The translations under genes were made by a program, and so were the position numbers. The notes beneath the pieces were generated by a model that saw only the letters and a list, made by a program, of their open reading frames with translations, searched no databases and had not been told where the DNA came from. DNA of 64,000 nucleotides from NCBI GenBank assembly GCA_024234215.1, contig JACKOQ010000005.1, positions 121,452-185,451 of the forward strand, written 5' to 3'. Of the stretch, positions 21,325 to 54,008 are shown piece after piece. How positions within the stretch are numbered: the first letter of the stretch is position 1; every line of letters starts with the position of its first letter. This DNA comes from Pseudomonadales bacterium. Its GTDB lineage: Bacteria > Pseudomonadota > Gammaproteobacteria > Pseudomonadales > UBA5862.

Positions 21325-21345
21325 GGGAAACCGTGGTCTGTCCCC
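21325..21345. repeat. solo terminal-repeat unit of the 88-bp MITE-like element
   Basis: GGGAAACCGTGGTCTGTCCCC is identical to the right terminal repeat of the copy at 50030..50117 (one mismatch to the right repeat at 25823..25843). It replaces the left half of the last attC of array A. Confidence 0.8.
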
Positions 21346-21356
21346 AAAAAGCTCAC

Positions 21357-21382
21357 AGGTCGCCTCGAACGCAGGGTTAGAG
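21357..21382 (-). repeat. attC remnant (R''/L'' half only) of the HNH cassette
   Basis: GGTCGCCTCGAACGCAGGGTTAGAG resembles the right half of the other attC sites. Its GTTAGAG box complements CTCTAAC at 22082. The left half is replaced by the MITE repeat. Confidence 0.65.
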
Positions 21383-22075
21383 ATCATGGGTTCCCTTTCC
21401 GCGATTGCATTCAAAACAGAGTGTCCACAAGTTGTCCTCGCCGTTTGTGCCACCCTTTGCGACTGCGATCTTGTGGTCAACTTCCAGTCTGCTGCCTTCT
21501 TCGGCGGACGCCCCACAAATGCAGCACCGATATGAATCACGCTTGAAGATCGCGAACCGCTGAGTAACGGATATACCGGCCCGCACCTTTCCCTTCGCTC
21601 TAAATTCGGTGCAAGCTTCATCGAACGCGAGAATGGCTTCAGGTGCGGCATGCCTGAGGAGCAAGTAGCTTCTTATGTTTTCGAGGGAACTCGTTGTCCG
21701 CGGGAATGATCGGTCACGCTCCACATCACAGGCAAAATCACCAACCGGGTCGTCGCGCTTAGTTTGGCGAAGAAGCCAACGATAGAGTTGACTCCTTGCG
21801 GCCTTTTCAGCCTTGACGTCAGCGGCTGCCAGTTCGGCAATGATGTTTTTGGCATCTGATGGTCGGAAAAACTTTGTGTTTGGTTTCTTCGCGTAGCGCT
21901 CCCACGATTGAAGTGACTGCGCGTATCTCTGTGCACGAGTTGAAACGTGGTCGGGATCTTCAAAGTGCTGCGCAGGCTCGAACAAGTCGCAACGCGCACA
22001 GTAGTACATGTTTGGCGTTTCTTCATGATGGTCGCCATGAACGTAATAGCGAGTGCGTGCGGAGTGCCGGATCAT
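21377..22075 (-). CDS. cassette protein: YozE-like SAM-like domain fused to HNH endonuclease
   Basis: The central segment LYRWLLRQTKRDDPVGDFACDVERDRSFPRTTSSLENIRSYLL..FDEA aligns with B. subtilis YozE as I recall it. The C-terminus carries an HNH motif (CCICG..LEVDHKIAVAKGGTN..NLWTLCFECN). Confidence 0.7.
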   Translation of the reverse strand: MIRHSARTRYYVHGDHHEETPNMYYCARCDLFEPAQHFEDPDHVSTRAQRYAQSLQSWERYAKKPNTKFFRPSDAKNIIAELAAADVKAEKAARSQLYRWLLRQTKRDDPVGDFACDVERDRSFPRTTSSLENIRSYLLLRHAAPEAILAFDEACTEFRAKGKVRAGISVTQRFAIFKRDSYRCCICGASAEEGSRLEVDHKIAVAKGGTNGEDNLWTLCFECNRGKGTHDL

Positions 22076-22081
22076 GATGAT

Positions 22082-22168
22082 CTCTAACGTAGAGCTAACC
22101 GGCGCTGCGCGGCTTTATCGCGCAGCGTCCAGCGACCAAAGGGAGCGAGGTTGAGCGCCATGTTGGGC
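22082..22168 (-). repeat. integron attC site (87 bp)
   Basis: Bounded by CTCTAAC and GTTGGGC, with internal inverted repeats (TAACCGGCGCTGCGCGG...). Confidence 0.8.
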
Positions 22169-22173
22169 ATGCA

Positions 22174-22533
22174 CTAGTTCTTACTTTTTCTTGCGCTACA
22201 CAATGTCGTTGAGAGACCGCGATTCAATTTTATTTCTGTGCCCGCCTTAACGTAGCAAGCAATGGTCTTTTCCGAATTTACCGAACCGGCGCAGAGTTCA
22301 ACGGCGATGCCGCGAATAATGCCTTCATCTATTTTGGAAATGAGTCCATAGCACTTTGCGGGCTCGGGCGTCCATGCTCCGGAGCAAAGCTCAGTCCCCG
22401 ACCCGATATTGATCTCAGGGTCTATTTTGGTGACATCGTTCAAACAGTCGATTGGGTCATAAGCGAACGCGGCAGTACTGTAAACCATTGCGAAAGTAAG
22501 ACAAATAGCGCTTAGAGCTCCGGTTCTGGGCAT
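22174..22533 (-). CDS. cassette protein: small secreted protein with three Cys-containing repeats
   Basis: Signal peptide (..STAAFA), then three units of about 28 aa, each of the form C-x20-LC[SA][GA]. Confidence 0.6.
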   Translation of the reverse strand: MPRTGALSAICLTFAMVYSTAAFAYDPIDCLNDVTKIDPEINIGSGTELCSGAWTPEPAKCYGLISKIDEGIIRGIAVELCAGSVNSEKTIACYVKAGTEIKLNRGLSTTLCSARKSKN

Positions 22534-22557
22534 TTATCGTTCCCTCCTTATTTGCAT

Positions 22558-22626
22558 GCCCAACGTTCAAGGTAACCGGCCTTGCGCGGCTTTATGCGCA
22601 AGGTCCGGTTGACCGCAGGGTTCGGC
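22558..22626 (-). repeat. integron attC site (69 bp)
   Basis: Bounded by GCCCAAC and GTTCGGC. Inverted repeats GGTAACCGGCCTTGCGCGG / GCGCAAGGTCCGGTTGACC. Confidence 0.85.
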
Positions 22627-23121
22627 CCCAACGGATATTTCACTGAGCCGTTCTTCGGTGAATTTCCAAGCCGTAGGAATTCGGTCAATTGTTCCCGCCG
22701 CCTTGGCACGGCTTGTCCAGATGTGCTCCTCATACAAGATGGTGTCACCGCGCCCGGCTGCGGCCGCCTTCAACCACGAAGCAATTTCAGTTGGGGTGGC
22801 GAGATACATGCGAGGTAGCGCATCAATCGCGACGCCGCGAAATTGAACGAGGCAGAAGACGGTCTTCTTCGAATGCTTCTTCAACCAAGCATCTACGGCA
22901 CCGTGGTAGTCGGCGTTGGCGATGTGTGACTGCGTGAGGCCCCACCCACCGTCTTGGCTTCCTTTCACGGAAACTTTCAACATGCGTTCGCCGGAAACGG
23001 CGACCAGATCGTACTCGGGTTGATTAGCTCCGTACTGCACGGACACATCCCATCCACAGCGCGCAAACTGCGCGGCTGCAAATGCCTCTGCTGCTGTAGC
23101 AACCTGCCAAGAAGTAATCAT
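22567..23121 (-). CDS. cassette protein: PD-(D/E)XK-like nuclease-fold protein (tentative)
   Basis: Start chosen at MITSWQV (23121). The E..YDLVAV..KVSVK arrangement resembles small PD-(D/E)XK endonucleases of the VQVK type. The last 20 or so codons run through the attC. Confidence 0.45.
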   Translation of the reverse strand: MITSWQVATAAEAFAAAQFARCGWDVSVQYGANQPEYDLVAVSGERMLKVSVKGSQDGGWGLTQSHIANADYHGAVDAWLKKHSKKTVFCLVQFRGVAIDALPRMYLATPTEIASWLKAAAAGRGDTILYEEHIWTSRAKAAGTIDRIPTAWKFTEERLSEISVGAEPCGQPDLAHKAAQGRLP

Positions 23122-23133
23122 GTGCGTGTTGGG

Positions 23134-23262
23134 GCCGAACGTTCGAGTTAACCGGCCCGCGGAGGCAGGCACCGTAAGGCCGGGCTGAGATGATGCACCA
23201 TGTCCCTCAGCCCGGCCTTGCGGTGCCTGCCGTAGCGGGTCCGGTTGAACGAGGGGTTAGGC
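23134..23262 (-). repeat. integron attC site (129 bp)
   Basis: Bounded by GCCGAAC and GTTAGGC. By-eye alignment suggests about 85-90 percent identity to the attC at 24490..24618. Confidence 0.9.
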
Positions 23263-23308
23263 GTCGCCCGGGTGTGGACGAACGGCGACAGTCTCTTCCT
23301 ATCGATTG

Positions 23309-23602
23309 CTAAAAGCTTACCGAATCTCCGGGCGCGATCCACGGCACACCGTACGGCGTTCCCTGCTCAACGGTGATTTCGATTTCTGCAAACTTCCCAT
23401 CGGTACTGTAGGCCGTAATCGTTTGGCACGCATCGCGTGCCACGGCCCCTTCAAACAACTTCTTCATATTGGCCTTTTTGTCCTTTATTACGACAGTTTT
23501 TGTCCCTGTGCCGAACTTGTTGCACAACGAAAACGAGACGTCTGCGGCCATAGCAGGCGTTGCCGAAAGCACCAAGGCAAGTACACCAAATAGGTATTTC
23601 AT
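23309..23602 (-). CDS. cassette protein: small secreted protein
   Basis: Start chosen at MKYLFGVLALVLSATPAMA (signal peptide). 97 aa. It is the second gene of a two-gene cassette. Confidence 0.55.
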   Translation of the reverse strand: MKYLFGVLALVLSATPAMAADVSFSLCNKFGTGTKTVVIKDKKANMKKLFEGAVARDACQTITAYSTDGKFAEIEITVEQGTPYGVPWIAPGDSVSF

Positions 23603-23624
23603 TTTGCTTCTCCTTGAGTAATCG

Positions 23625-24446
23625 TCAATCGTAATTTGCCATCCATTTACTGTACCAGTCGCGATGACAATAGTTGTCGTAGGTGCGCGGCACCAGTTCT
23701 GAGCCTGCATATACTCGATAGACGTAAGCAGGAATCCAGTTGGAACCCTCGACTTTGATTCGACGGTCCGGATTGCGGTTTACGAGAACTATGCAACCGT
23801 CTCTTTGCTGAATTCTAAGGTCCTCGCACGCGTTGCCGCTGCACGGGCCGCCTGCCGCGGGGCCTCCCCCTGACGACTGAGTAGTGCGTGATGGTGGTGG
23901 CGGTGGTGGAGGCGGCGTTGGGCTTTGATCGCCTCGGCCGCTGCGGCCCCTATTAGTGACCCCTGGCGGAGCAACGCCAACTGGTGGTGACACTTCTCCC
24001 GGCCGCACGATTGGTTCGTACCCAGGTTGCCCCGGTTGAAATGCGATTCCGTAAGATGTTTTTCCGGCGCCTCGATCAATGGAGATGAAGTCCTCCATGT
24101 CGTATTCGTTCTGGTTCACCTGACAATATTTTTCTGTCTTGATTCCAGAGGTGTTCTCGACTCGGACACAGAAGTTCGGACCATCGCCGGACCACTTGCG
24201 ACTAGGCGATCGGGCGAATATGTACAGATATCGATTCTTTAGTACTTCGGTGATGATCTCCTTGCAGCTGGCGCCCTCCACGCGTCGATTCATGTACGTC
24301 ACCCACTCTTCGTTGACATACATTCGTACGGACACATAGATGGCCTCCGCATTTCGATTGCAGACGTTAAGTTGCGCATGTCCAGAAGTAGCGGCTAGCA
24401 TGGCGAGCGCGCCTATCGTCTTGCCGGACCATCCCTTGCAGTGCAT
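23625..24446 (-). CDS. cassette protein: secreted, DUF1036-like N-domain, poly-Pro linker, Cys-containing C-domain
   Basis: Signal peptide (..ATSGHA), then LNVCNRNAEAIYVSV, which resembles the DUF1036 start. A PPPPPPPP linker follows, then a C-terminal domain of about 75 aa. Confidence 0.55.
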   Translation of the reverse strand: MHCKGWSGKTIGALAMLAATSGHAQLNVCNRNAEAIYVSVRMYVNEEWVTYMNRRVEGASCKEIITEVLKNRYLYIFARSPSRKWSGDGPNFCVRVENTSGIKTEKYCQVNQNEYDMEDFISIDRGAGKTSYGIAFQPGQPGYEPIVRPGEVSPPVGVAPPGVTNRGRSGRGDQSPTPPPPPPPPSRTTQSSGGGPAAGGPCSGNACEDLRIQQRDGCIVLVNRNPDRRIKVEGSNWIPAYVYRVYAGSELVPRTYDNYCHRDWYSKWMANYD

Positions 24447-24489
24447 GAGCCCTCCCGATGTTTAGTTGGAGAAAGCGGTGGATTGCGAC

Positions 24490-24618
24490 GCCTAACGTTC
24501 GAGCTAACCGGCCAGCGGAGGCAAGCGCCGTATGCCCGGGCTGAGATGATGCACCAAGTGCCTCAGCCCGGGCTTACGGCGCTTGCCGTAGCGGGTCCGG
24601 TTGAGCGAGGGGTTAGGC
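24490..24618 (-). repeat. integron attC site (129 bp)
   Basis: Bounded by GCCTAAC and GTTAGGC. Paralogue of the attC at 23134..23262. Confidence 0.9.
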
Positions 24619-24619
24619 T

Positions 24620-25531
24620 TCACCAGCCGTAGTACCTCGATAGTGCGTTTGTCAGTAGGCCACCGGCGACACCAATTTCGACCTGCCACGCTGCATTGAT
24701 GGCCTTGTCCATCATTCGGGAGAGCCACGACCGGGTTTGCGGACCAAAGCTCTTCTCTGCAACCTCCGTACTCGTGGAGTCCGCGGCTATTGCCTGCTGC
24801 AGCGCGGCAACGTCGGATTCCTGCACTTGCTTTGCGCGCAGGAACGCGGCGAGTGAATCAAAGTCTCCGCGCTCGACTGAATTGCGAACAGTTTGCTGAT
24901 TATTGTGGCCGACCAAGATGGTCACGTTGTCGCCGAAAATGGCGTTGTTGAACATTGATCCTGTCTCGGGTGACTGTGCTACGCGCTTGACCGCTTCGTC
25001 CGACATATCTGCTCCAACCTTTTCACTCACGTCAAGCAGGAAGTCCAGGAGCTTCGACCGCACCTGAGCCGTGATTTGTGCAAACCGACCAATCCCAATA
25101 TCGCACCAAGCTTGCTGTACCTTGTAGCCGCCAGAGAGTGCTTTATTGAAGAACGCTGCATACTCCACCGGCAACGGGCGCTGAAGGCCCTTCGTATCGT
25201 GCTTGGCCAAACCCTCCAAGACGGCAATGGAATCGCGCATCTCGAGTTCTTCAAGACGCTTCCTTTGCTCCTTGGTTAGGTGCATTGTAGGTAGCGGGTG
25301 GTCAGAGTACGAGTATGCGTTGTTTGTGACATTGCCCTTGACATGGGCTGGGATGACGCGATAACTCGGAAGTGGAGCGTCGTCAGGATACCCGTTGATC
25401 TCGTTGTTAACCCAATCAACCAAGTCGCGCCGACCAACCCTGTGGAGAAGAACTTTCGTCTTCACGAGTGCGTCGATCAAACTCGGCTGGGGCTCCGAGA
25501 GTTCGGAAATTAGATCGGTGAGGAGCTTCAT
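24620..25531 (-). CDS. cassette protein: AbiTii-like abortive-infection family protein
   Basis: Start chosen at MKLLTDL (25531). The N-terminus SLIDALVKTKVLLHRVGRRDLVDWVNNEINGY..LPSYRVI matches the AbiTii N-domain pattern as I recall it. The C-terminus ends in a hydrophobic helix. This is the first cassette after attI'. Confidence 0.6.
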   Translation of the reverse strand: MKLLTDLISELSEPQPSLIDALVKTKVLLHRVGRRDLVDWVNNEINGYPDDAPLPSYRVIPAHVKGNVTNNAYSYSDHPLPTMHLTKEQRKRLEELEMRDSIAVLEGLAKHDTKGLQRPLPVEYAAFFNKALSGGYKVQQAWCDIGIGRFAQITAQVRSKLLDFLLDVSEKVGADMSDEAVKRVAQSPETGSMFNNAIFGDNVTILVGHNNQQTVRNSVERGDFDSLAAFLRAKQVQESDVAALQQAIAADSTSTEVAEKSFGPQTRSWLSRMMDKAINAAWQVEIGVAGGLLTNALSRYYGW

Positions 25532-25545
25532 AGGTGGATTGTGAA

Positions 25546-25641
25546 GCCTAACTATAAATGGACACCCCAAAAGGTGGCTTGTTTTACACCTTACGGGTGT
25601 CTAATATTTTGCCAGGCAAGGCTATACCGAGGTTAAGCGTC
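25546..25641 (-). other. attI' (second integron attachment site plus promoter region)
   Basis: 25549..25641 matches 52597..52689 with 2 mismatches. Homology begins exactly at the ..TAAC recombination point, and the junction reads GTTAGGC on the cassette strand. Confidence 0.8.
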
Positions 25642-25761
25642 ATGTCAAACGTGGTAGTACACCCCAAAACGATTGTCGACCACGCCTCCGGCGGGGCATC
25701 CACGCCGAAGCTGCTGGATGAGGTACGCGCCCACATCCAGCGGTTGAACTACAGCATCCGG
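25642..25761 (+). pseudogene. intI: truncated integron integrase (first 40 codons only)
   Basis: [40 protein letters not shown] matches IntI at 52690 with one aa change. The reading frame then runs into the MITE. Confidence 0.9.
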
Positions 25762-25849
25762 GAGAATTGGGGACAGACCACGGTTTCCTGGTTTCTGCTC
25801 CGCTTTGGCAGAAAACCGTAACGGGAAACCATGGTCTGTCCCCAATTCT
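25762..25849. mobile_element. 88-bp MITE-like palindromic element
   Basis: 26-27 bp terminal inverted repeats with one mismatch in this copy: AGAATTGGGGACAGACCACGGTTTCC ... GGGAAACCATGGTCTGTCCCCAATTCT. An inner 9-bp hairpin is present. The second full copy is at 50030..50117. Confidence 0.85.
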
Positions 25850-48929: not shown

Positions 48930-49020
48930 GGAGAGGTGGCCGAGAGGCCGAAGGCGCTCCCCTGCTAAGGGAGTATGGGTCAAAAGCTCATCGAGGGTTC
49001 GAATCCCTCCCTCTCCGCCA
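48930..49020 (+). tRNA. tRNA-Ser (anticodon GCU)
   Basis: Acceptor GGAGAGG/CCTCTCC-G-CCA. Anticodon arm CTCCC[CTGCTAA]GGGAG. Long variable arm. T arm GAGGG-TTCGAAT-CCCTC. Confidence 0.9.
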
Positions 49021-49150: not shown

Positions 49151-49170
49151 GGGAAACCGTGGTCTGTCCC
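49151..49170. repeat. solo terminal-repeat unit of the MITE-like element
   Basis: GGGAAACCGTGGTCTGTCCC lies 130 bp after tRNA-Ser, at the distal edge of array B. Confidence 0.75.
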
Positions 49171-49196
49171 AGATCCTTCGAAAACCGTCTCTTCAC

Positions 49197-49292
49197 GTCC
49201 AACCTCCGTCGTCTGGGGGATTGGACTCCAAACTACCGCACTACTCAAAATCGGGGGGACATCGGCACTTCGGGTGCAACGAAGGGTTAGCC
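49197..49292 (-). repeat. putative attC of the vapBC cassette (atypical)
   Basis: Bounded by GTCCAAC and GTTAGCC. The internal complementarity is only weak and unlike the other attC sites. GTTAGCC nearly complements GGATAAC at 49991. Confidence 0.35.
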
Positions 49293-49358: not shown

Positions 49359-49604
49359 ATGCCTACGACGCTGACCTTGAAGAACATTCCGGATGAGGTG
49401 TACGAGCGGCTCAAGCTCTCGGCTGCAGCCCACCGACGCAGCATGAACAGCGAGGCGATTGTGTGCCTGGAGACAGCGCTGCTGGCGAACAGGCTTGCTC
49501 CTGCCGAACGGCTTGCGCGAGCACGGACACTACGCGCGGCGTTGCCGAAGGGGAAGTTCCGAGCGACGGACATTGACGCCATGAAGCAAGAGGGCCGCTC
49601 GTGA
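49359..49604 (+). CDS. vapB: VapB-type antitoxin (ribbon-helix-helix, FitA/StbC-like)
   Basis: MPTTLTLKNIPDEVYERLKLSAAAHRRSMNSEAI. Overlaps the PIN gene by 4 nt. Confidence 0.8.
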   Translation: MPTTLTLKNIPDEVYERLKLSAAAHRRSMNSEAIVCLETALLANRLAPAERLARARTLRAALPKGKFRATDIDAMKQEGRS

Positions 49605-49996
49605 TTGTGGTGGACTCGAATGTGGTTGCGTACTTGTACTTGCCCGGCGAGCACACCGCCAAGGCGGAAGCCCTGCTCGAGCAAGACCCGGACTGGGCGG
49701 CGCCGGTACTGTGGCGCAGCGAGTTCCGCAACATACTTGCCGGATACCTGCGGCGCAAGATCCTGACCTTCGACCAGGCCTGCAGCCTTCAAAGTGAGGC
49801 TGAAGAGCTATTCGCTGGATCGGAGTTCGAGGTTGACTCGAAGGCAGTGCTTGAACTGGTACGCGACAGTGACTGCTCAGCGTATGACTGTGAGTTCATT
49901 GCGCTGGCGAACAAGCTGCAGGTCAAGCTGGTGACGATGAATGCCAAGCTTCTGAGGGCCTTCCCAAAGCGAACGATCTCGCTCGCTGCGGGATAA
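49601..49996 (+). CDS. vapC: VapC-type PIN-domain toxin
   Basis: MIVVDSNVV..(D)..SAYDCEFIALA, with acidic PIN residues. GTG start. Confidence 0.85.
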   Translation: MIVVDSNVVAYLYLPGEHTAKAEALLEQDPDWAAPVLWRSEFRNILAGYLRRKILTFDQACSLQSEAEELFAGSEFEVDSKAVLELVRDSDCSAYDCEFIALANKLQVKLVTMNAKLLRAFPKRTISLAAG

Positions 49997-50546
49997 CGAG
50001 GCTGGAGAATTGGGGACGAGAATTGCGACGAGAATTGGGGACAGACCACGGTTTCCTGGTTTCTGCTCCGCTTTGGCAGAAAACCGTAACGGGAAACCGT
50101 GGTCTGTCCCCAATTCTCCCAATTCTCCTAACGGGAAACCGTGGTCTGTCCCCATTTCTCCCTTTGAAGATGTCGTAGTATTTAGGTCTGGGTTCAGAAG
50201 AGTCGCGGAAGTACGCGATTGCATCAATGAGGAACAGCTCCGTAAGCTCTGGATCGAGCGAGATGGTGTCGTGCGGATCGCGATCAGCATGCTTGAAGAA
50301 GTTTTCTGGCTCATTCAAGGCTTTGATGACCGCGGCTCGTCGAGATTCTGGTAAGGAGTCAATGTAGTCCCGCTTGATGAACGGGTGCGGCGTCCCTTGC
50401 CGACTGGCGATATCCCTCAGAGCGTTGTACGCGGCGGAGGCAAGCGTATGAGTTGCTATCGCGTTGTCCGACACGAAGTACATCTCGATAGCCGCGTCGA
50501 GTTGTGAGCGGATAGCGTCAAACTTGGTTACCGTAATCTTCGCCAT
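49923..50546 (-). pseudogene. cassette gene of unknown function, 3' end replaced by MITE sequence
   Basis: ATG at 50546 (MAKITVTKFDAIRSQLD...). The native sequence ends near 50154 (..YYDIFKG). The rest of the ORF translates MITE repeats (GDRPRFPV occurs twice). Confidence 0.55.
50005..50153. mobile_element. MITE complex: degenerate 13-bp tandem units, one full 88-bp element and one extra terminal repeat
   Basis: GAGAATTGGGGAC / GAGAATTGCGAC / full element at 50030..50117 / CCAATTCTCCTAAC / GGGAAACCGTGGTCTGTCCCC at 50133..50153. Confidence 0.8.
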
Positions 50547-50558
50547 GTCTACGTAGGG

Positions 50559-50630
50559 GTCCAACGTGCGAATTCAGCGGACGGCAAAAAGCGCAGCTTT
50601 TTGACGGTCCGCTGGAATGACTTGTTGGGC
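50559..50630 (-). repeat. integron attC site (72 bp)
   Basis: Bounded by GTCCAAC and GTTGGGC. Inverted repeats CAGCGGACGG / ACGGTCCGCTG. Confidence 0.85.
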
Positions 50631-50631
50631 G

Positions 50632-51021
50632 TCATTTCTCGACCCTCTTACAAGCACCATCAAATGACCAAGCAGAAGTAGTAACGGCGAGCGTTTTACT
50701 TAAAGAAGAAAAATGCCCTTTGATGTTTCGTTGAGAGTCATAAATCTGAAGTTGATCGCCAACTTCAACAACGTGCTCAAAATATTCAAATGTTCTGTTT
50801 GGCACCTCCAGCCATACAGAGCCGTCAGAGTCACTCCACAAGCCTACCCACCACCTGTACTCGTGCAATTTCATGAAGACCGTGGCTTGCTGCGAATTGT
50901 TCTGAGCGGAAATTTCACCGGAGCATTGAAGGCGCGTTTCCACAGAAGAGAAATTAGCAACAAATAGAAATAGGCCGAGGGCTGCGACTAAGAATGCGCC
51001 CAAGTATTTCAGTAGCTTCAT
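50632..51021 (-). CDS. cassette protein: membrane-anchored or secreted, unknown function
   Basis: Start chosen at MKLLKYLGAFLVAALGLFLFV (51021), inside the cassette boundaries. 129 aa, AT-rich. Confidence 0.55.
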   Translation of the reverse strand: MKLLKYLGAFLVAALGLFLFVANFSSVETRLQCSGEISAQNNSQQATVFMKLHEYRWWVGLWSDSDGSVWLEVPNRTFEYFEHVVEVGDQLQIYDSQRNIKGHFSSLSKTLAVTTSAWSFDGACKRVEK

Positions 51022-51036
51022 GATCGCTCCATTGAC

Positions 51037-51162
51037 GCCCAACGCCAAGTTAACCGGCAGAACGGAGCCGGCTTGCCGGCGGAGTGGTTTGCAGTGGGGC
51101 GTAAAATTTTGCGGAGCAAAATGCCCCGCTGCAAACTGTCCGCGTTGAACGTATGGTTAGGT
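51037..51162 (-). repeat. integron attC site (126 bp)
   Basis: Bounded by GCCCAAC and GTTAGGT. Long internal palindrome (TTTGCAGTGGGGCGTAAAATTTTGCGGAGCAAAATGCCCCGCTGCAAA). Confidence 0.85.
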
Positions 51163-51168
51163 GCGGCG

Positions 51169-51459
51169 CTACAGAGTGCAATATGAGAACGCAATAGAGG
51201 CTCCCCGGTCAGTCTCGCAAATCATCTTCCCCGGCTGCGATACGCTATCGCATAGCATTTCTGACCATTTCTTGTGGCTCTCACAACCATCAAGATCCTT
51301 AAATCTTGCGGCGACAAAGCAGTTTGTTTCAGCGGCGCCGCATATCACATACTTGACCTGCGTCTCGCCTTTTGCGCCTTTAACACCTTCTGTATCGTCG
51401 CCAAGATTGCACCCACTGAAGAGCAGCAACAACGGAAGTATGAGAATGTAGCGATTCAT
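51169..51459 (-). CDS. cassette protein: small lipoprotein
   Basis: MNRYILILPLLLLFSGC lipobox. 96 aa with several Cys residues. Confidence 0.6.
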   Translation of the reverse strand: MNRYILILPLLLLFSGCNLGDDTEGVKGAKGETQVKYVICGAAETNCFVAARFKDLDGCESHKKWSEMLCDSVSQPGKMICETDRGASIAFSYCTL

Positions 51460-51465
51460 CAAAGC

Positions 51466-51526
51466 ACCTAACGTTTGCCATCAACCGGCCTGCCGAAGGC
51501 AGGTCCGGTTGATGGCGGGGTTGGGC
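51466..51526 (-). repeat. integron attC site (61 bp)
   Basis: Bounded by ACCTAAC and GTTGGGC. Inverted repeats CATCAACCGGCCTGCC / GGCAGGTCCGGTTGATG. Confidence 0.9.
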
Positions 51527-51783
51527 AGCCCGCACTCGGCCGACCGGTGGGCGAGCGCACCGAACCGCCGAGTCGCCCGCGCCAGCGGGGACGGCTGGAT
51601 GCATGGCCACACCGAGCGGTGCACCGAGCAGACGCCGCTGGCGCCCGGTGGAGCGGCACCGCGAGTGCGCCGCCCGCCAGCGGACGGGCGGCCCGCGCTG
51701 GCGGTCGTGCTGCACTTGTTCGATGCGCTCATGCGGTGGTTATCGACTTGGCGCTTCGATAGAAACCAGACACCGCGCATTAC

Positions 51784-51870
51784 GCCCAACGTTCGCCATA
51801 ACCGGCAGTGAAAAGCGGTGCGACGAAGGAGCGCCGCTTTTCACTGTCCGCGTTGATGGCGTTGTTATGT
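51784..51870 (-). repeat. integron attC site (87 bp)
   Basis: Bounded by GCCCAAC and GTTATGT. Inverted repeats CAGTGAAAAGCGGTG / GCGCCGCTTTTCACTG. Confidence 0.9.
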
Positions 51871-51873
51871 GGG

Positions 51874-52572
51874 TTACAGCTTGGCAACATCAATGTGATA
51901 CCCCTGGGCTGCCATTTCTTTAGCGAGTAGAGTGCCTGCTTCTTTCTGAAGGTCGTCCTTGAATGGGATGTATATCAAGCCTTGGATATCTGAAGGCCGT
52001 TCCATATTGGCTTGTTGTTTGAGAAGGATGGCCACTCGACTTCGGCCTAACCGCGACAGAAGCATGCCCAGTTCAAGAACAACATTTTGACGGGCCCGGT
52101 ATGCTTTCTCGTCGTCACGGCCTGCGCGATGGCCTTCGTCGTCAGGCGTTGCAAGGACCACAGCAAAGTGAATTTCTGCTGTGTACTTTTCCAGCTTCTC
52201 GATGATTGTTTGTCCTTCAGATGGGAGTTGATCAAGGATTAATGGTTCAAGCCCCCAACGACGCAACATAGCCTCAAGATGGTTCCGTGCAGTTTCGTCG
52301 TGGCCATAAACCACAAATACCTTTTTGTTCCCACCTGCCACAACAGGGGTGCCTGCTGTTGTTGCGGCGGTGGAAACAACTGGTGCGCCTAGAGCGGCTT
52401 TGATTTCAGGCTGGCACTTACCTTGAACATTGAAATTGCCTGTGTCGAAGATATTGACGATACCGCCATTCGCGAGCCTAAGCTGCCAACCCGTGTCGTT
52501 GTTCAATCGCTGTTCAGATGTAATCGCAAGGCCAGCAGCGGTAAGCAATCCCTTTGCTTGACTAATGTCCAC
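51874..52572 (-). CDS. cassette protein: TIR-like nucleotide-binding domain protein (PF10137/COG4271 type, CAP12/PycTIR-like effector domain)
   Basis: The C-terminal 130 aa read KVFVVYGHDETARNHLEAMLRRWGLEPLILDQ..TIIEKLE..FAVVLATPDD..RARQNVVLELGML..RPSDIQGLIYIPF. A small N-terminal domain of about 55 aa and an Ala/Thr/Gly linker precede it. This is the first cassette after attI. Confidence 0.75.
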   Translation of the reverse strand: MDISQAKGLLTAAGLAITSEQRLNNDTGWQLRLANGGIVNIFDTGNFNVQGKCQPEIKAALGAPVVSTAATTAGTPVVAGGNKKVFVVYGHDETARNHLEAMLRRWGLEPLILDQLPSEGQTIIEKLEKYTAEIHFAVVLATPDDEGHRAGRDDEKAYRARQNVVLELGMLLSRLGRSRVAILLKQQANMERPSDIQGLIYIPFKDDLQKEAGTLLAKEMAAQGYHIDVAKL

Positions 52573-52593
52573 GATGGCTATCTCCTGGAAAGC

Positions 52594-52689
52594 ACATAAC
52601 TATAAATGGACACCCCAAAAGGTGGCTTGTTTTACACCTTGCGGGTGTCTAATATTTTGCCGGGCAAGGCTATACCGAGGTTAAGCGTC
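52594..52689 (-). other. attI (integron primary attachment site plus promoter region)
   Basis: The cassette/attI junction reads GTTATGT on the cassette strand. The region contains a 41-bp nested palindrome and candidate Pint and Pc promoters. Confidence 0.8.
52627..52655 (+). promoter_or_regulatory. candidate Pint promoter
   Basis: TTGTTT-N17-TAATAT about 35 bp upstream of the intI ATG. It overlaps the attI palindrome. Confidence 0.35.
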
Positions 52690-52696
52690 ATGTCAA
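52669..52696 (-). promoter_or_regulatory. candidate Pc cassette promoter
   Basis: On the minus strand, TTGACA-N16-TATAGC. The -35 box overlaps the intI start codon, and transcription would run through attI into the cassettes. The same sequence is present at 25621..25648. Confidence 0.4.
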
Positions 52697-53700
52697 ACGT
52701 GGTAGTACACCCCAAAACGATTGTCGACCACGCCTCCGGCGGGGCATCCAAGCCGAAGCTGCTGGATGAGGTACGCGCCCACATCCAGCGGTTGAACTAC
52801 AGCATCCGCACCGAGGATGCGTACGTCGATTGGGTACGCCGGTTCGTGCTGTTTCACGACAAACGCCACCCGCGGGAGATGGGTGCAGCCGAAATCGAGG
52901 CGTTTCTGACCCACCTCGCGGTGGTGGGCAAGGTGTCGGCGTCCACCCAGAACCAGGCCAAGAGCGCGCTGCTGTTTCTTTATCGGGCTGTATTGAATGT
53001 CGACTTGCCGTGGCTGGGCGACATCGCATCGGCCCGGCAGGGCAAGCGCTTGCCGGTGGTGCTGACAGTGGCCGAAGTACAGGCGACGCTGGCGCGGGTA
53101 ACCGGCACGACCGGCCTGATGGTGCGGCTCTTGTACGGCAGCGGGCTGCGGTTGATGGAGTGCGCGCGGCTGCGGGTGAAGGATGTGGATTTCGGACAGA
53201 TGCAGATCGTGGTGCGCGATGGCAAGGGCGACAAGGACCGCGTGACAATGCTGCCGCGATCCCTGGTGGAACCTCTGCAAGCGCATCTGGAGCGCGTGAA
53301 GGCGCTGCACGAGAGCGATATCGAAGCGGGCTACGGCGAGGTATACCTGCCCCATGCGCTCGATCGCAAATACCCCCGGGCCGGCCGGGAATGGGGCTGG
53401 CAGTATGTGTTTCCGTCCACCAGGCGGTCGGTCGATCCCCGCTCCGGGGCCATCCGGCGTCACCATGCGGATGAAAAAGTACTGCAGCGGGCGATGAAGC
53501 GAGCCGTGCGCGAGGCCGGCATCGTCAAACCCGCCACCCCGCACACGCTGCGCCACAGCTTCGCCACGCACTTGTTACAGGCCGGCTATGACATCCGCAC
53601 CGTGCAGGAGCTGCTCGGTCACACCCACGTAGAAACCACGATGCTCTACACCCACGTCCTGAATCGGGGTGGGCGAGGAGTGGTCAGTCCGCTCGACTGA
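52690..53700 (+). CDS. intI: integron integrase
   Basis: ATG at 52690. [22 protein letters not shown] (compare IntI1 [22 protein letters not shown]). Catalytic region [19 protein letters not shown]...[23 protein letters not shown]. IntI-specific insert [22 protein letters not shown]. Confidence 0.92.
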
Positions 53701-53917: not shown

Positions 53918-54008
53918 TGGCGGAGAGGGAGGGATTCGAACCCTCGATACGCTATTAACGTATACACACTTTCCAGGCGTGCTCCTTCAACCACTCGGAC
54001 ACCTCTCC
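53918..54008 (-). tRNA. tRNA-Ser (anticodon GGA)
   Basis: The reverse complement reads GGAGAGGTGTCCGAGTGG..CACGC[CTGGAAA]GTGTG.., with a long variable arm and ending ..GAGGGTTCGAATCCCTCCCTCTCCGCCA. Confidence 0.9.

Follow-up and report, generated by a model that had tools for sequence, protein, structure and literature searches.

An orphan attI at an eroded second integron in a Pseudomonadales chromosome probably still captures cassettes with an integrase encoded elsewhere

We analyzed a 64,000-nucleotide stretch (the window) of a Pseudomonadales bacterium (assembly GCA_024234215.1, contig JACKOQ010000005.1, positions 121,452 to 185,451) that carries two chromosomal integron platforms, called locus A and locus B here. 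Locus B (50163 to 53700) is a complete integron with an integrase domain, an attI insertion point, and a cassette array with attC sites. At locus A (21326 to 25849), an attI and an array of cassettes lie next to a short stub of the integrase gene intI. Our comparison with related contigs indicates that locus A is probably an eroded second integron whose orphan attI still captures cassettes by means of the integrase IntI of locus B. What carries this reading is the variety of first cassettes found on one and the same truncated allele.

Two attI sites and the turnover of first cassettes

The argument depends on the following features (positions are those of the window; ORF, open reading frame; MITE, miniature inverted-repeat transposable element).

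25552 to 25641, plus strand: orphan attI (attI-A), complete from the crossover to the intI start codon; attI-B differs from it only at 25593 and 25614
25642 to 25760, plus strand: intI stub of 39 2/3 codons, reading on into the MITE-like element as a 59-aa ORF (codons at 25642 to 25818, ORF end at 25821)
25762 to 25849, unstranded: 88-bp inverted-repeat (MITE-like) element at the truncation point; 31-nt arms, 90% complementary; DNA fold of -34 kcal/mol, z = -10
25621 to 25648, minus strand: candidate cassette promoter (Pc) TTGACA-N16-TATAGC, overlapping the intI start codon and identical in both copies
52600 to 52689, plus strand: attI-B; contigs L106 to L110 diverge from the window at 52597/52598
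52690 to 53700, plus strand: intact integron integrase gene intI (336 aa); full-length match to NCBIfam TIGR02249 at 483 bits (cut-off, 265)
50163 to 52599, minus strand: array B, which by its sequence has four complete cassettes and one cassette ORF cut at 50162/50163

The original prediction described an ungapped match of 209 out of 212 nucleotides between 25549 to 25760 and 52597 to 52808, and a direct comparison of the two copies bears it out, with mismatches at 25593, 25614, and 25703 and intI start codons at 25642 (copy A) and 52690 (copy B). The match had been said to begin at the attI crossover and to end in intI at codon 40, the point where the MITE starts, and both placements hold. 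The left edge (..TAAC) is the crossover because independent contigs part from the window exactly there at both copies; the right edge lies 39 2/3 codons into intI and is followed by the 88-bp element. The 59-aa product of the stub and the element matched no integrase family, and no family at all, in a protein family search. The two arrays form blocks of low G+C content (0.51 to 0.58, against 0.61 to 0.68 in most of the surrounding sequence) at about 21 to 26 kb (array A) and 49 to 53 kb (array B), and about 22 kb of housekeeping genes (CBS, GGDEF, acpS, pdxJ, recO, era, rnc, lepB, lepA, argG, lysC, and csrA) lie between them. An 11-nt palindrome, TTGCC[A/G]GGCAA (25609 to 25619 and 52657 to 52667), sits just downstream of the candidate -10 hexamer, and its central base is the only fixed difference between locus A and locus B in all contigs.

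The comparison set consisted of metagenome contigs and metagenome-assembled genomes (MAGs), labeled L### and brought in by exact-protein lookups. A scan of species-representative genomes with IntI gave a best match of only 72% identity, and the species is not in that collection; the related MAGs (GCA_020848385.1, GCA_041910235.1, GCA_035339055.1, and GCA_016277765.1) come from activated-sludge and similar metagenomes.

A repeat of 212 bp that had been collapsed or misjoined during assembly could produce a false second attI, and the original prediction had named such an artefact as the observation that would undo it. Two contigs, L081 and L145, do contain joins of the "wrong" kind, and these cross 136 to 146 nt that are identical in both copies in those samples, a length at or above the k-mer used. 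The stub locus itself, with its second attI, 40-codon stub, and own array, recurs in many independent assemblies and is real. At least 13 contigs of independent origin carry the identical junction of attI, stub, MITE-like element, and CBS-domain gene and have copy-specific alleles to either side of the repeat; they stem from several assemblers and three MAGs and include contigs of 400 kb and 227 kb. The protein of the first cassette in the window, AbiTii, was found on 16 contigs. Four contigs (L082, L084, L086, and L088) span the region from AbiTii through attI, stub, and element to CBS, and each of the three variable sites has the copy-A allele in them; the longest run that they share exactly with copy B is therefore 88 nt, a length below that of the assembly k-mer. 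Contigs of the same MAG break at the matching repeat offsets 25684 and 52732, which is the behavior of a true two-copy repeat, and one 27.5-kb MAG contig connects array A, by way of core genes, with the toxin-antitoxin pair on the distal side of array B. An assembly artefact is therefore refuted for the stub locus, and we regard it as an extremely improbable source of the second attI.

The exact 59-aa ORF of stub and element occurs on 15 contigs, and 13 contigs agree with the window at every one of the 296 nt between the attI crossover and the end of the element. On the cassette side of this identical allele there are eight classes of first cassette, each joined exactly at the crossover (25546 to 25552): AbiTii, a UCP032817-like protein, a 126+144-aa cassette, a 79-aa cassette, a DUF1353 protein (unrelated to DUF1036), and three others. 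Some of these arrays form a nested series. L150 has a new cassette between attI and AbiTii. The 400-kb contig L146 reads attI, 126+144, the first 140 nt of AbiTii, a repeat end, and hom, and the 227-kb contig L147 reads attI, 79, 90, methyltransferase+416, 126+144, and the AbiTii remnant. All added cassettes with a readable attC in L150, L146, and L147 have their own attC, in which R'' pairs with the first bases of the cassette. Successive insertion at attI is what integrase-mediated capture produces. By this comparative evidence attI-A appears to be functional in the sense that cassettes are inserted at its crossover. As all eight arrays have one junction, which is thus a single shared event, truncation would by parsimony have preceded the insertions, and the most likely account of the sequences is that cassettes entered attI-A after the truncation with IntI supplied in trans.

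We infer that the enzyme responsible is the IntI of locus B (52690 to 53700). It would recognize attI-A, which differs from attI-B at 2 of 90 positions, act on it in trans, and insert and excise cassettes there as it does at attI-B. Over intI, the genes for tRNA-Ser(gga) and the nitroreductase, and 11 kb of flanking sequence, five contigs (L106 to L110) are 99.8% identical to the window; they diverge exactly at 52597/52598, where they have four further classes of first cassette. Because the first cassette varies in this way, the locus-B IntI is active in the population. The 126+144 cassette, seen at locus A, is the second cassette of the locus-B array of L106, so both platforms take their cassettes from a common pool. 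The same samples and MAGs (ERZ27268128, ERZ27268126, ERZ937806, and GCA_041910235.1) contain stub variants together with full-length locus-B intI. The earlier suggestion that array A could be served in trans by the intact IntI thus gains support from the eight first cassettes on one stub allele and from the nested series.

Is locus A instead a dead relic, an ordinary cluster of attC sites lacking an integrase (CALIN), whose array froze at the loss of the integrase and which has neither trans service nor any link to the intact integron? Chromosomal integrons usually do freeze once intI is lost, as in the Xanthomonas arrays, and most of the stub contigs first retrieved have AbiTii as their first cassette. 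Eight classes of first cassette and a nested series on an allele that is identical over 296 nt are the opposite of a frozen array, as the cassettes turned over without any point mutation in the allele, and we consider the relic quite unlikely.

A second possibility is that the arrays were built in cis by an intact intI-A and that the stub allele then spread, or arrays were swapped, by homologous recombination within the 212-bp repeat. The population recombines and is mosaic (in L129, flanks of 99 to 100% identity surround an attI of 80% identity), L081 and L145 might have arisen by genuine recombination in the repeat, and recombination between 441-bp intI1 repeats is known from In104 of Salmonella genomic island 1 (SGI1; PMC3285670). 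Against this, no contig retrieved has an intact intI at locus A, the longest remnant being 157 codons, and a crossover confined to about 208 nt would have been required for each of the eight arrays. At 25593, 25614, and 25703 all of these arrays are purely of the copy-A type, and arrays derived from locus B should carry B alleles, as L145 does. We judge an origin in cis to be unlikely, somewhat less so than the relic.

Several points weigh against capture in trans at attI-A. The order of truncation first and insertions later is an argument from parsimony, and the stub allele could have spread by homologous recombination onto arrays built with an intact intI-A. In our comparative data, which are metagenome contigs and MAGs, the window is the only place that proves a given stub and an intact intI to be in one genome. 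In L166 and L168 the locus-B intI lacks attI and codons 1 to 10, and the source of the integrase for L146 and L147 is uncertain because these come from the same Joint Genome Institute (JGI) sample series. The contigs L081 (array A and copy-A attI alleles on an intact intI) and L145 (CBS, MITE-like element, and stub with locus-B attI alleles and the 119-aa cassette first) represent reciprocal paths through 136 to 146 nt; they may stem from assembler switches or from real recombination that exchanges arrays between the two contexts, and were not used as evidence. Finally, the candidate Pc looks weak in its sequence, with a poor -10 hexamer.

The two contigs were also considered in other roles. 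L081 was dropped as the ancestral arrangement, as the two copies agree throughout the 146 nt in which its join lies and its assembly used k = 119. Had it arisen by a simple deletion, about 27 kb of essential genes would also be gone; should loci A and B have inverted orientations in some genomes, L081 and L145 may be true inversion recombinants. L145 was the one match of a junction-pattern search of JGI metagenomes and is ambiguous, possibly a chimera.

As to expression, the original prediction held that the stub keeps the candidate Pc. The sequence TTGACA-N16-TATAGC is indeed present, but a consensus promoter scan does not report it, its -10 hexamer lacking the final T, and the retention of Pc is a statement about sequence. 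The scan does report TTTACA-16-TATTTT on the plus strand, which could serve intI. Whatever the promoter of array B is, it is also present at locus A because the sequences are identical there, and array A is presumably transcribed.

Erosion of the two loci at an 88-bp repeat family

Lookups with the flanking CBS protein and the distal cassette proteins revealed several states of locus A between hom and the CBS-domain gene. In L101 the 184-aa and 119-aa cassettes are followed by attI, intI codons 1 to 157, a related terminal repeat (TTGGGGGCAGACCACGGTTTC), a 2.6-kb segment that holds three more genes, and CBS. In L129 the same junction of the element with CBS is joined to about 23 intI codons of an attI/intI allele that is only 80% identical, followed by nine other cassettes and then by the 184-aa, 119-aa, and HNH cassettes, which are 100% identical to those of the window. 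Locus A of L092 is devoid of intI. Every intI cut at this locus (codon 40, codon 157, about codon 23, or no intI) lies at a repeat of the 88-bp family. These states argue that locus A once had a longer integrase gene and was eroded in place. The copies of the family other than the one at the stub are as follows (all unstranded).

21326 to 21355: solo terminal repeat (GGAAACCGTGGTCTGTCCCC + AAAAAGCTC) of the 88-bp family, with an exact 20-nt match; distal boundary of array A
49152 to 49171: solo terminal repeat between tRNA-Ser(gct) and the FitA/PIN toxin-antitoxin pair
50030 to 50162: second MITE copy (50030 to 50117, 99% identical) and solo terminal repeat (50129 to 50162), at the distal edge of array B

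The window thus holds two full 88-bp copies and three solo ends, and further copies are present in related contigs. The terminal sequence of the family can be written as GGGGACAGACCACGGTTTCC. Its 20-nt repeat occurs seven times in the window, against 0.01 copies expected, and all seven are found within the two integron regions or at their edges. The same family bounds array A on both sides. The right-hand junction of the element at 25762 to 25849 with the region upstream of CBS is common to all stub contigs. At other boundaries the partners vary: 21355 is joined to 21356 in the window, to 25413 in L146 and L147, and to other DNA in L092, and 50162 is joined to 50163 in the window, to a different array in L116, and to different partners also in L123 and L124. 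The outer ends of the repeat family hence behave as fixed deletion endpoints with varying partners.

The 88-bp element has the form of a MITE, being short and noncoding with terminal inverted repeats and several copies. No copy that we examined is flanked by a target-site duplication, and we identified neither a transposase partner nor a plasmid match. We therefore use "MITE" for the form only and not to imply mobility. An IS30-like insertion sequence (IS) in L156 was rejected as a partner, as its ends are unrelated to those of the element. In some contigs this IS (HTH_38 and rve domains; L156 10622 to 11718) separates tRNA-Ser(gct) from the toxin-antitoxin pair, and its insertion duplicated 3 bp of the target (49225 to 49227 in the window). 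A further rearrangement at the 88-bp element is seen in L088 (1 to 2200), where only 58 nt of the MITE beside the stub are left and the sequence continues with the 3' end of a tRNA gene and a gene for a 636-aa protein.

From these observations we propose that locus A would be the remnant of a second chromosomal integron between hom and the CBS-domain gene. A deletion would have taken the 3' 88% of intI-A, ending precisely at the end of the 88-bp element, and a solo repeat of the same family would have cut the far end of array A. The survivors would be a complete attI, intI codons 1 to 40 with any cassette promoter there, and five cassettes.

Could a fragment of integron B, with array, attI, and the 5' end of intI, instead have been copied between hom and CBS as a composite, MITE-bracketed transposon? 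Terminal repeats of one family do stand at both ends of the fragment (21326 to 21355 and 25762 to 25849), and MITE-bracketed class 1 integrons are known in Acinetobacter (PMC3934969). We think such a mobile unit very unlikely. L101 has a 157-codon intI remnant and extra genes at the same locus, and this longer remnant is better explained by erosion in place than by the import of a fragment already cut. The left repeat consists of one end alone, neither a target-site duplication nor a transposase partner was found, and the repeat ends act as fixed deletion endpoints with several partners.

In some contigs locus B is eroded too. In the long JGI contigs L166 (13112 to 14400) and L168 (13112 to 14180), a terminal repeat of the same family immediately precedes codon 11, the first codon left of the locus-B intI, and there is no attI and no array. 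In L166 a tRNA gene and queA-tgt-yajC follow; L168 joins straight into the queA coding sequence, and its intI has a 3-nt deletion. In genomes of this type the orphan attI of locus A may be the only attI left. Contigs L156 and L158 (400 kb and 66 kb) have other genes after the toxin-antitoxin pair and no integron within 10 kb, and in L106 the array ends at an IS adjoining rpiA. The predicted distance of 27 kb between the stub and an intact integrase therefore holds in the window but is not universal, as L156 and L158 are without an integron there and the intI of L166 and L168 is clipped.

The cassette arrays and their neighborhood

Array A consists of five cassettes, all on the minus strand.

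24496 to 25551: cassette 1, AbiTii-family protein (24620 to 25531; Pfam AbiTii, 9e-40); attC at 24490 to 24618 (z = -10); found in 16 contigs
23140 to 24495: cassette 2, DUF1036 protein (23625 to 24446; Pfam) and 97-aa ORF (23309 to 23602); attC at 23134 to 23262, GCCTAAC/GTTAGGC
22564 to 23139: cassette 3, 184-aa ORF (22567 to 23121; weak PD-(D/E)XK match, Pfam); attC at 22558 to 22626, GCCGAAC/GTTCGGC
22088 to 22563: cassette 4, 119-aa ORF (22174 to 22533); attC at 22082 to 22168, GCCCAAC/GTTGGGC; both ends are breakpoints in L085, L134, and L145
21356 to 22087: cassette 5, HNH/YozE_SAM_like ORF (21377 to 22075; Pfam HNH, 4.6e-10; YozE_SAM_like, 1.5e-14)

Five pairs of complementary boxes had been predicted, and all are present: GCCTAA(C) at 25546 with GTTAGGC at 24612, GCCTAA(C) at 24490 with GTTAGGC at 23256, GCCGAA(C) at 23134 with GTTCGGC at 22620, GCCCAA(C) at 22558 with GTTGGGC at 22162, and CTCTAA(C) at 22082 with GTTAGAG at 21376. 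Two corrections apply to the predicted array: cassette 2 holds two ORFs, and the fifth attC is truncated. This attC is cut after about 27 nt (21356 to 21382; R'' CTCTAAC, 21376 to 21382) by the solo terminal repeat at 21326 to 21355, and the remnant has no fold; the start assigned to the feature, 21325, falls on this repeat. attC1 and attC2 form long imperfect hairpins (z = -10 and -11; -54 kcal/mol for that of cassette 2), and attC3 and attC4 have z values of -3.2 and -1.8. An ad hoc scan of the 64 kb for RYYYAAC...GTTRRRY with a hairpin gave matches in the two integron regions and none elsewhere. One of them, 25546 to 25638, was rejected as an attC, as it spans the junction of cassette 1 and attI. 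Four of the five boundaries of array A were independently seen as breakpoints in other arrays (25552, 23140, 22558 to 22564, and 22083 to 22088), and cassette 3 recurs in at least six other arrays with breakpoints at 23141 and 22558. With four complete attC sites and one truncated site clustered at 21356 to 24618, locus A has the form of a CALIN, defined by at least two clustered attC sites and no intact intI within 4 kb.

L131 (3 to 794) represents a different integron (intI of about 70% DNA identity) with the same 184-aa cassette as array A, and cassettes are thus shared between distinct integrons in the community. For the upstream cassette X of L085, the cluster representative of the protein lies in unrelated arrays.

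The first cassette of array B encodes a CAP12/Pycsar-type TIR-domain protein (51874 to 52572; Pfam, 8.9e-36), the second (51480 to 51790) is rich in G+C and has no convincing ORF in cassette orientation, and attC-like hairpins with R'' and R' boxes lie at 50559 to 50630, 51037 to 51162, and 51466 to 51526. Several cassettes resemble phage-defense or nuclease genes: those for AbiTii (24620 to 25531), the TIR-domain protein (51874 to 52572), the weak PD-(D/E)XK match (22567 to 23121), and HNH (21377 to 22075). A two-gene cassette with an N6/N4 methyltransferase in L147 (3061 to 5137) belongs to this group as well.

A FitA-like antitoxin and a PIN-domain toxin are encoded at the distal end of array B (49370 to 49996, plus strand), on the strand opposite to the cassettes, and this pair is kept next to csrA and tRNA-Ser in many contigs, even where no integron follows. 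The genes for tRNA-Ser(gct) (48930 to 49020, plus strand) and tRNA-Ser(gga) (53918 to 54008, minus strand) are inverted and 82% complementary over 99 nt, and they bracket integron B together with the toxin-antitoxin pair.

Comparison with known integrons and implications

The original prediction called one integrase with two attI platforms an unusual architecture, and this was overstated: In104 has two functional attI1 sites (PMC3285670), and half of the known CALINs are in genomes that encode an IntI (PMC4889954). In In104 of SGI1, one attI1 belongs to intI1 and the other to a truncated groEL-intI1 fusion, and recombination between the 441-bp 5' ends of intI1 gives rise to deletion variants (PMC3285670). 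Locus A resembles the latter site in that one functional intI is accompanied by a second attI, which has a cassette of its own and beside which just the 5' portion of intI is retained, and in that the intI 5' ends form direct repeats (441 bp in In104, 212 bp here). In104 is a class 1 mobile integron in a 13-kb transposon-like unit, whereas the platforms described here are chromosomal and lie about 27 kb apart with housekeeping genes between them. Deletion between the repeats is common in In104 and would probably be lethal here, and truncation occurred there by gene fusion and here by a MITE-like element. The IntI of locus B aligns through residues 24 to 336 with positions 1 to 313 of the 315 positions of TIGR02249, but its score against the class-1-type equivalog model NF011946 (385 bits) is below the cut-off of 435, and it is therefore not a class 1 integrase; neither qacE/sul1 nor another conserved segment of class 1 integrons is present. 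Locus A works like In104 without being a member of that group.

Cury et al. (2016) reported 279 CALINs, half of them in IntI-encoding genomes and 38% next to an IS; 15 were near a recognizable intI pseudogene, and 20% of the integron-bearing genomes had more than one IntI (PMC4889954). The same authors proposed IS-type elements as a cause and speculated that CALIN cassettes might be mobilized by an integrase encoded elsewhere (PMC4889954). Locus A is similar in being an attC cluster without an intact integrase nearby in a genome that encodes IntI elsewhere. It differs in keeping a complete attI, so that it can gain cassettes as well as lose them, and in the population evidence of continued capture; moreover, a 40-codon N-terminal stub would escape the pseudogene search of PMC4889954, which uses the C-terminal domain. 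In Tn402-like class 1 integrons of Acinetobacter, a pair of 439-bp MITEs seems to mobilize the whole unit, which is supported by a target duplication (PMC3934969). Both ends are truncated by copies of one miniature inverted-repeat element there and at locus A, whereas the 88-bp element and its solo ends are deletion endpoints here and show no sign of mobilization. What is new here is the population evidence that an orphan attI goes on capturing cassettes, in a chromosomal setting outside class 1.

Surveys sort integrons into complete integrons, empty integrons, and integrase-less arrays, and the last are usually seen as inert leftovers or passive reservoirs. In natural populations the integrase-less platform A shows a turnover of first cassettes as great as that of the intact integron of the same species. 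Loss of the integrase in cis need not freeze an array, and a single integrase can serve two sites of capture and expression and thereby double the promoter-proximal positions for new genes.

As a tentative extension, which we hold to be possible rather than likely, the two paralogous integrons might divide the work between them: integron A lost its integrase and captures cassettes with the enzyme of B, and in genomes such as those of L166 and L168 integron B lost its attI, array, and intI codons 1 to 10 to the same repeat family, leaving a fully split integron with attI and cassettes at locus A and the integrase gene at locus B. If so, and if the clipped integrase is expressed and active, this would be a case of duplication, degeneration, and complementation in a system for the capture of mobile genes, and many "CALINs" could then be live platforms. 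Loci A and B also provide a natural system in which to study the cis preference of IntI and the erosion of integrons by small repeats.

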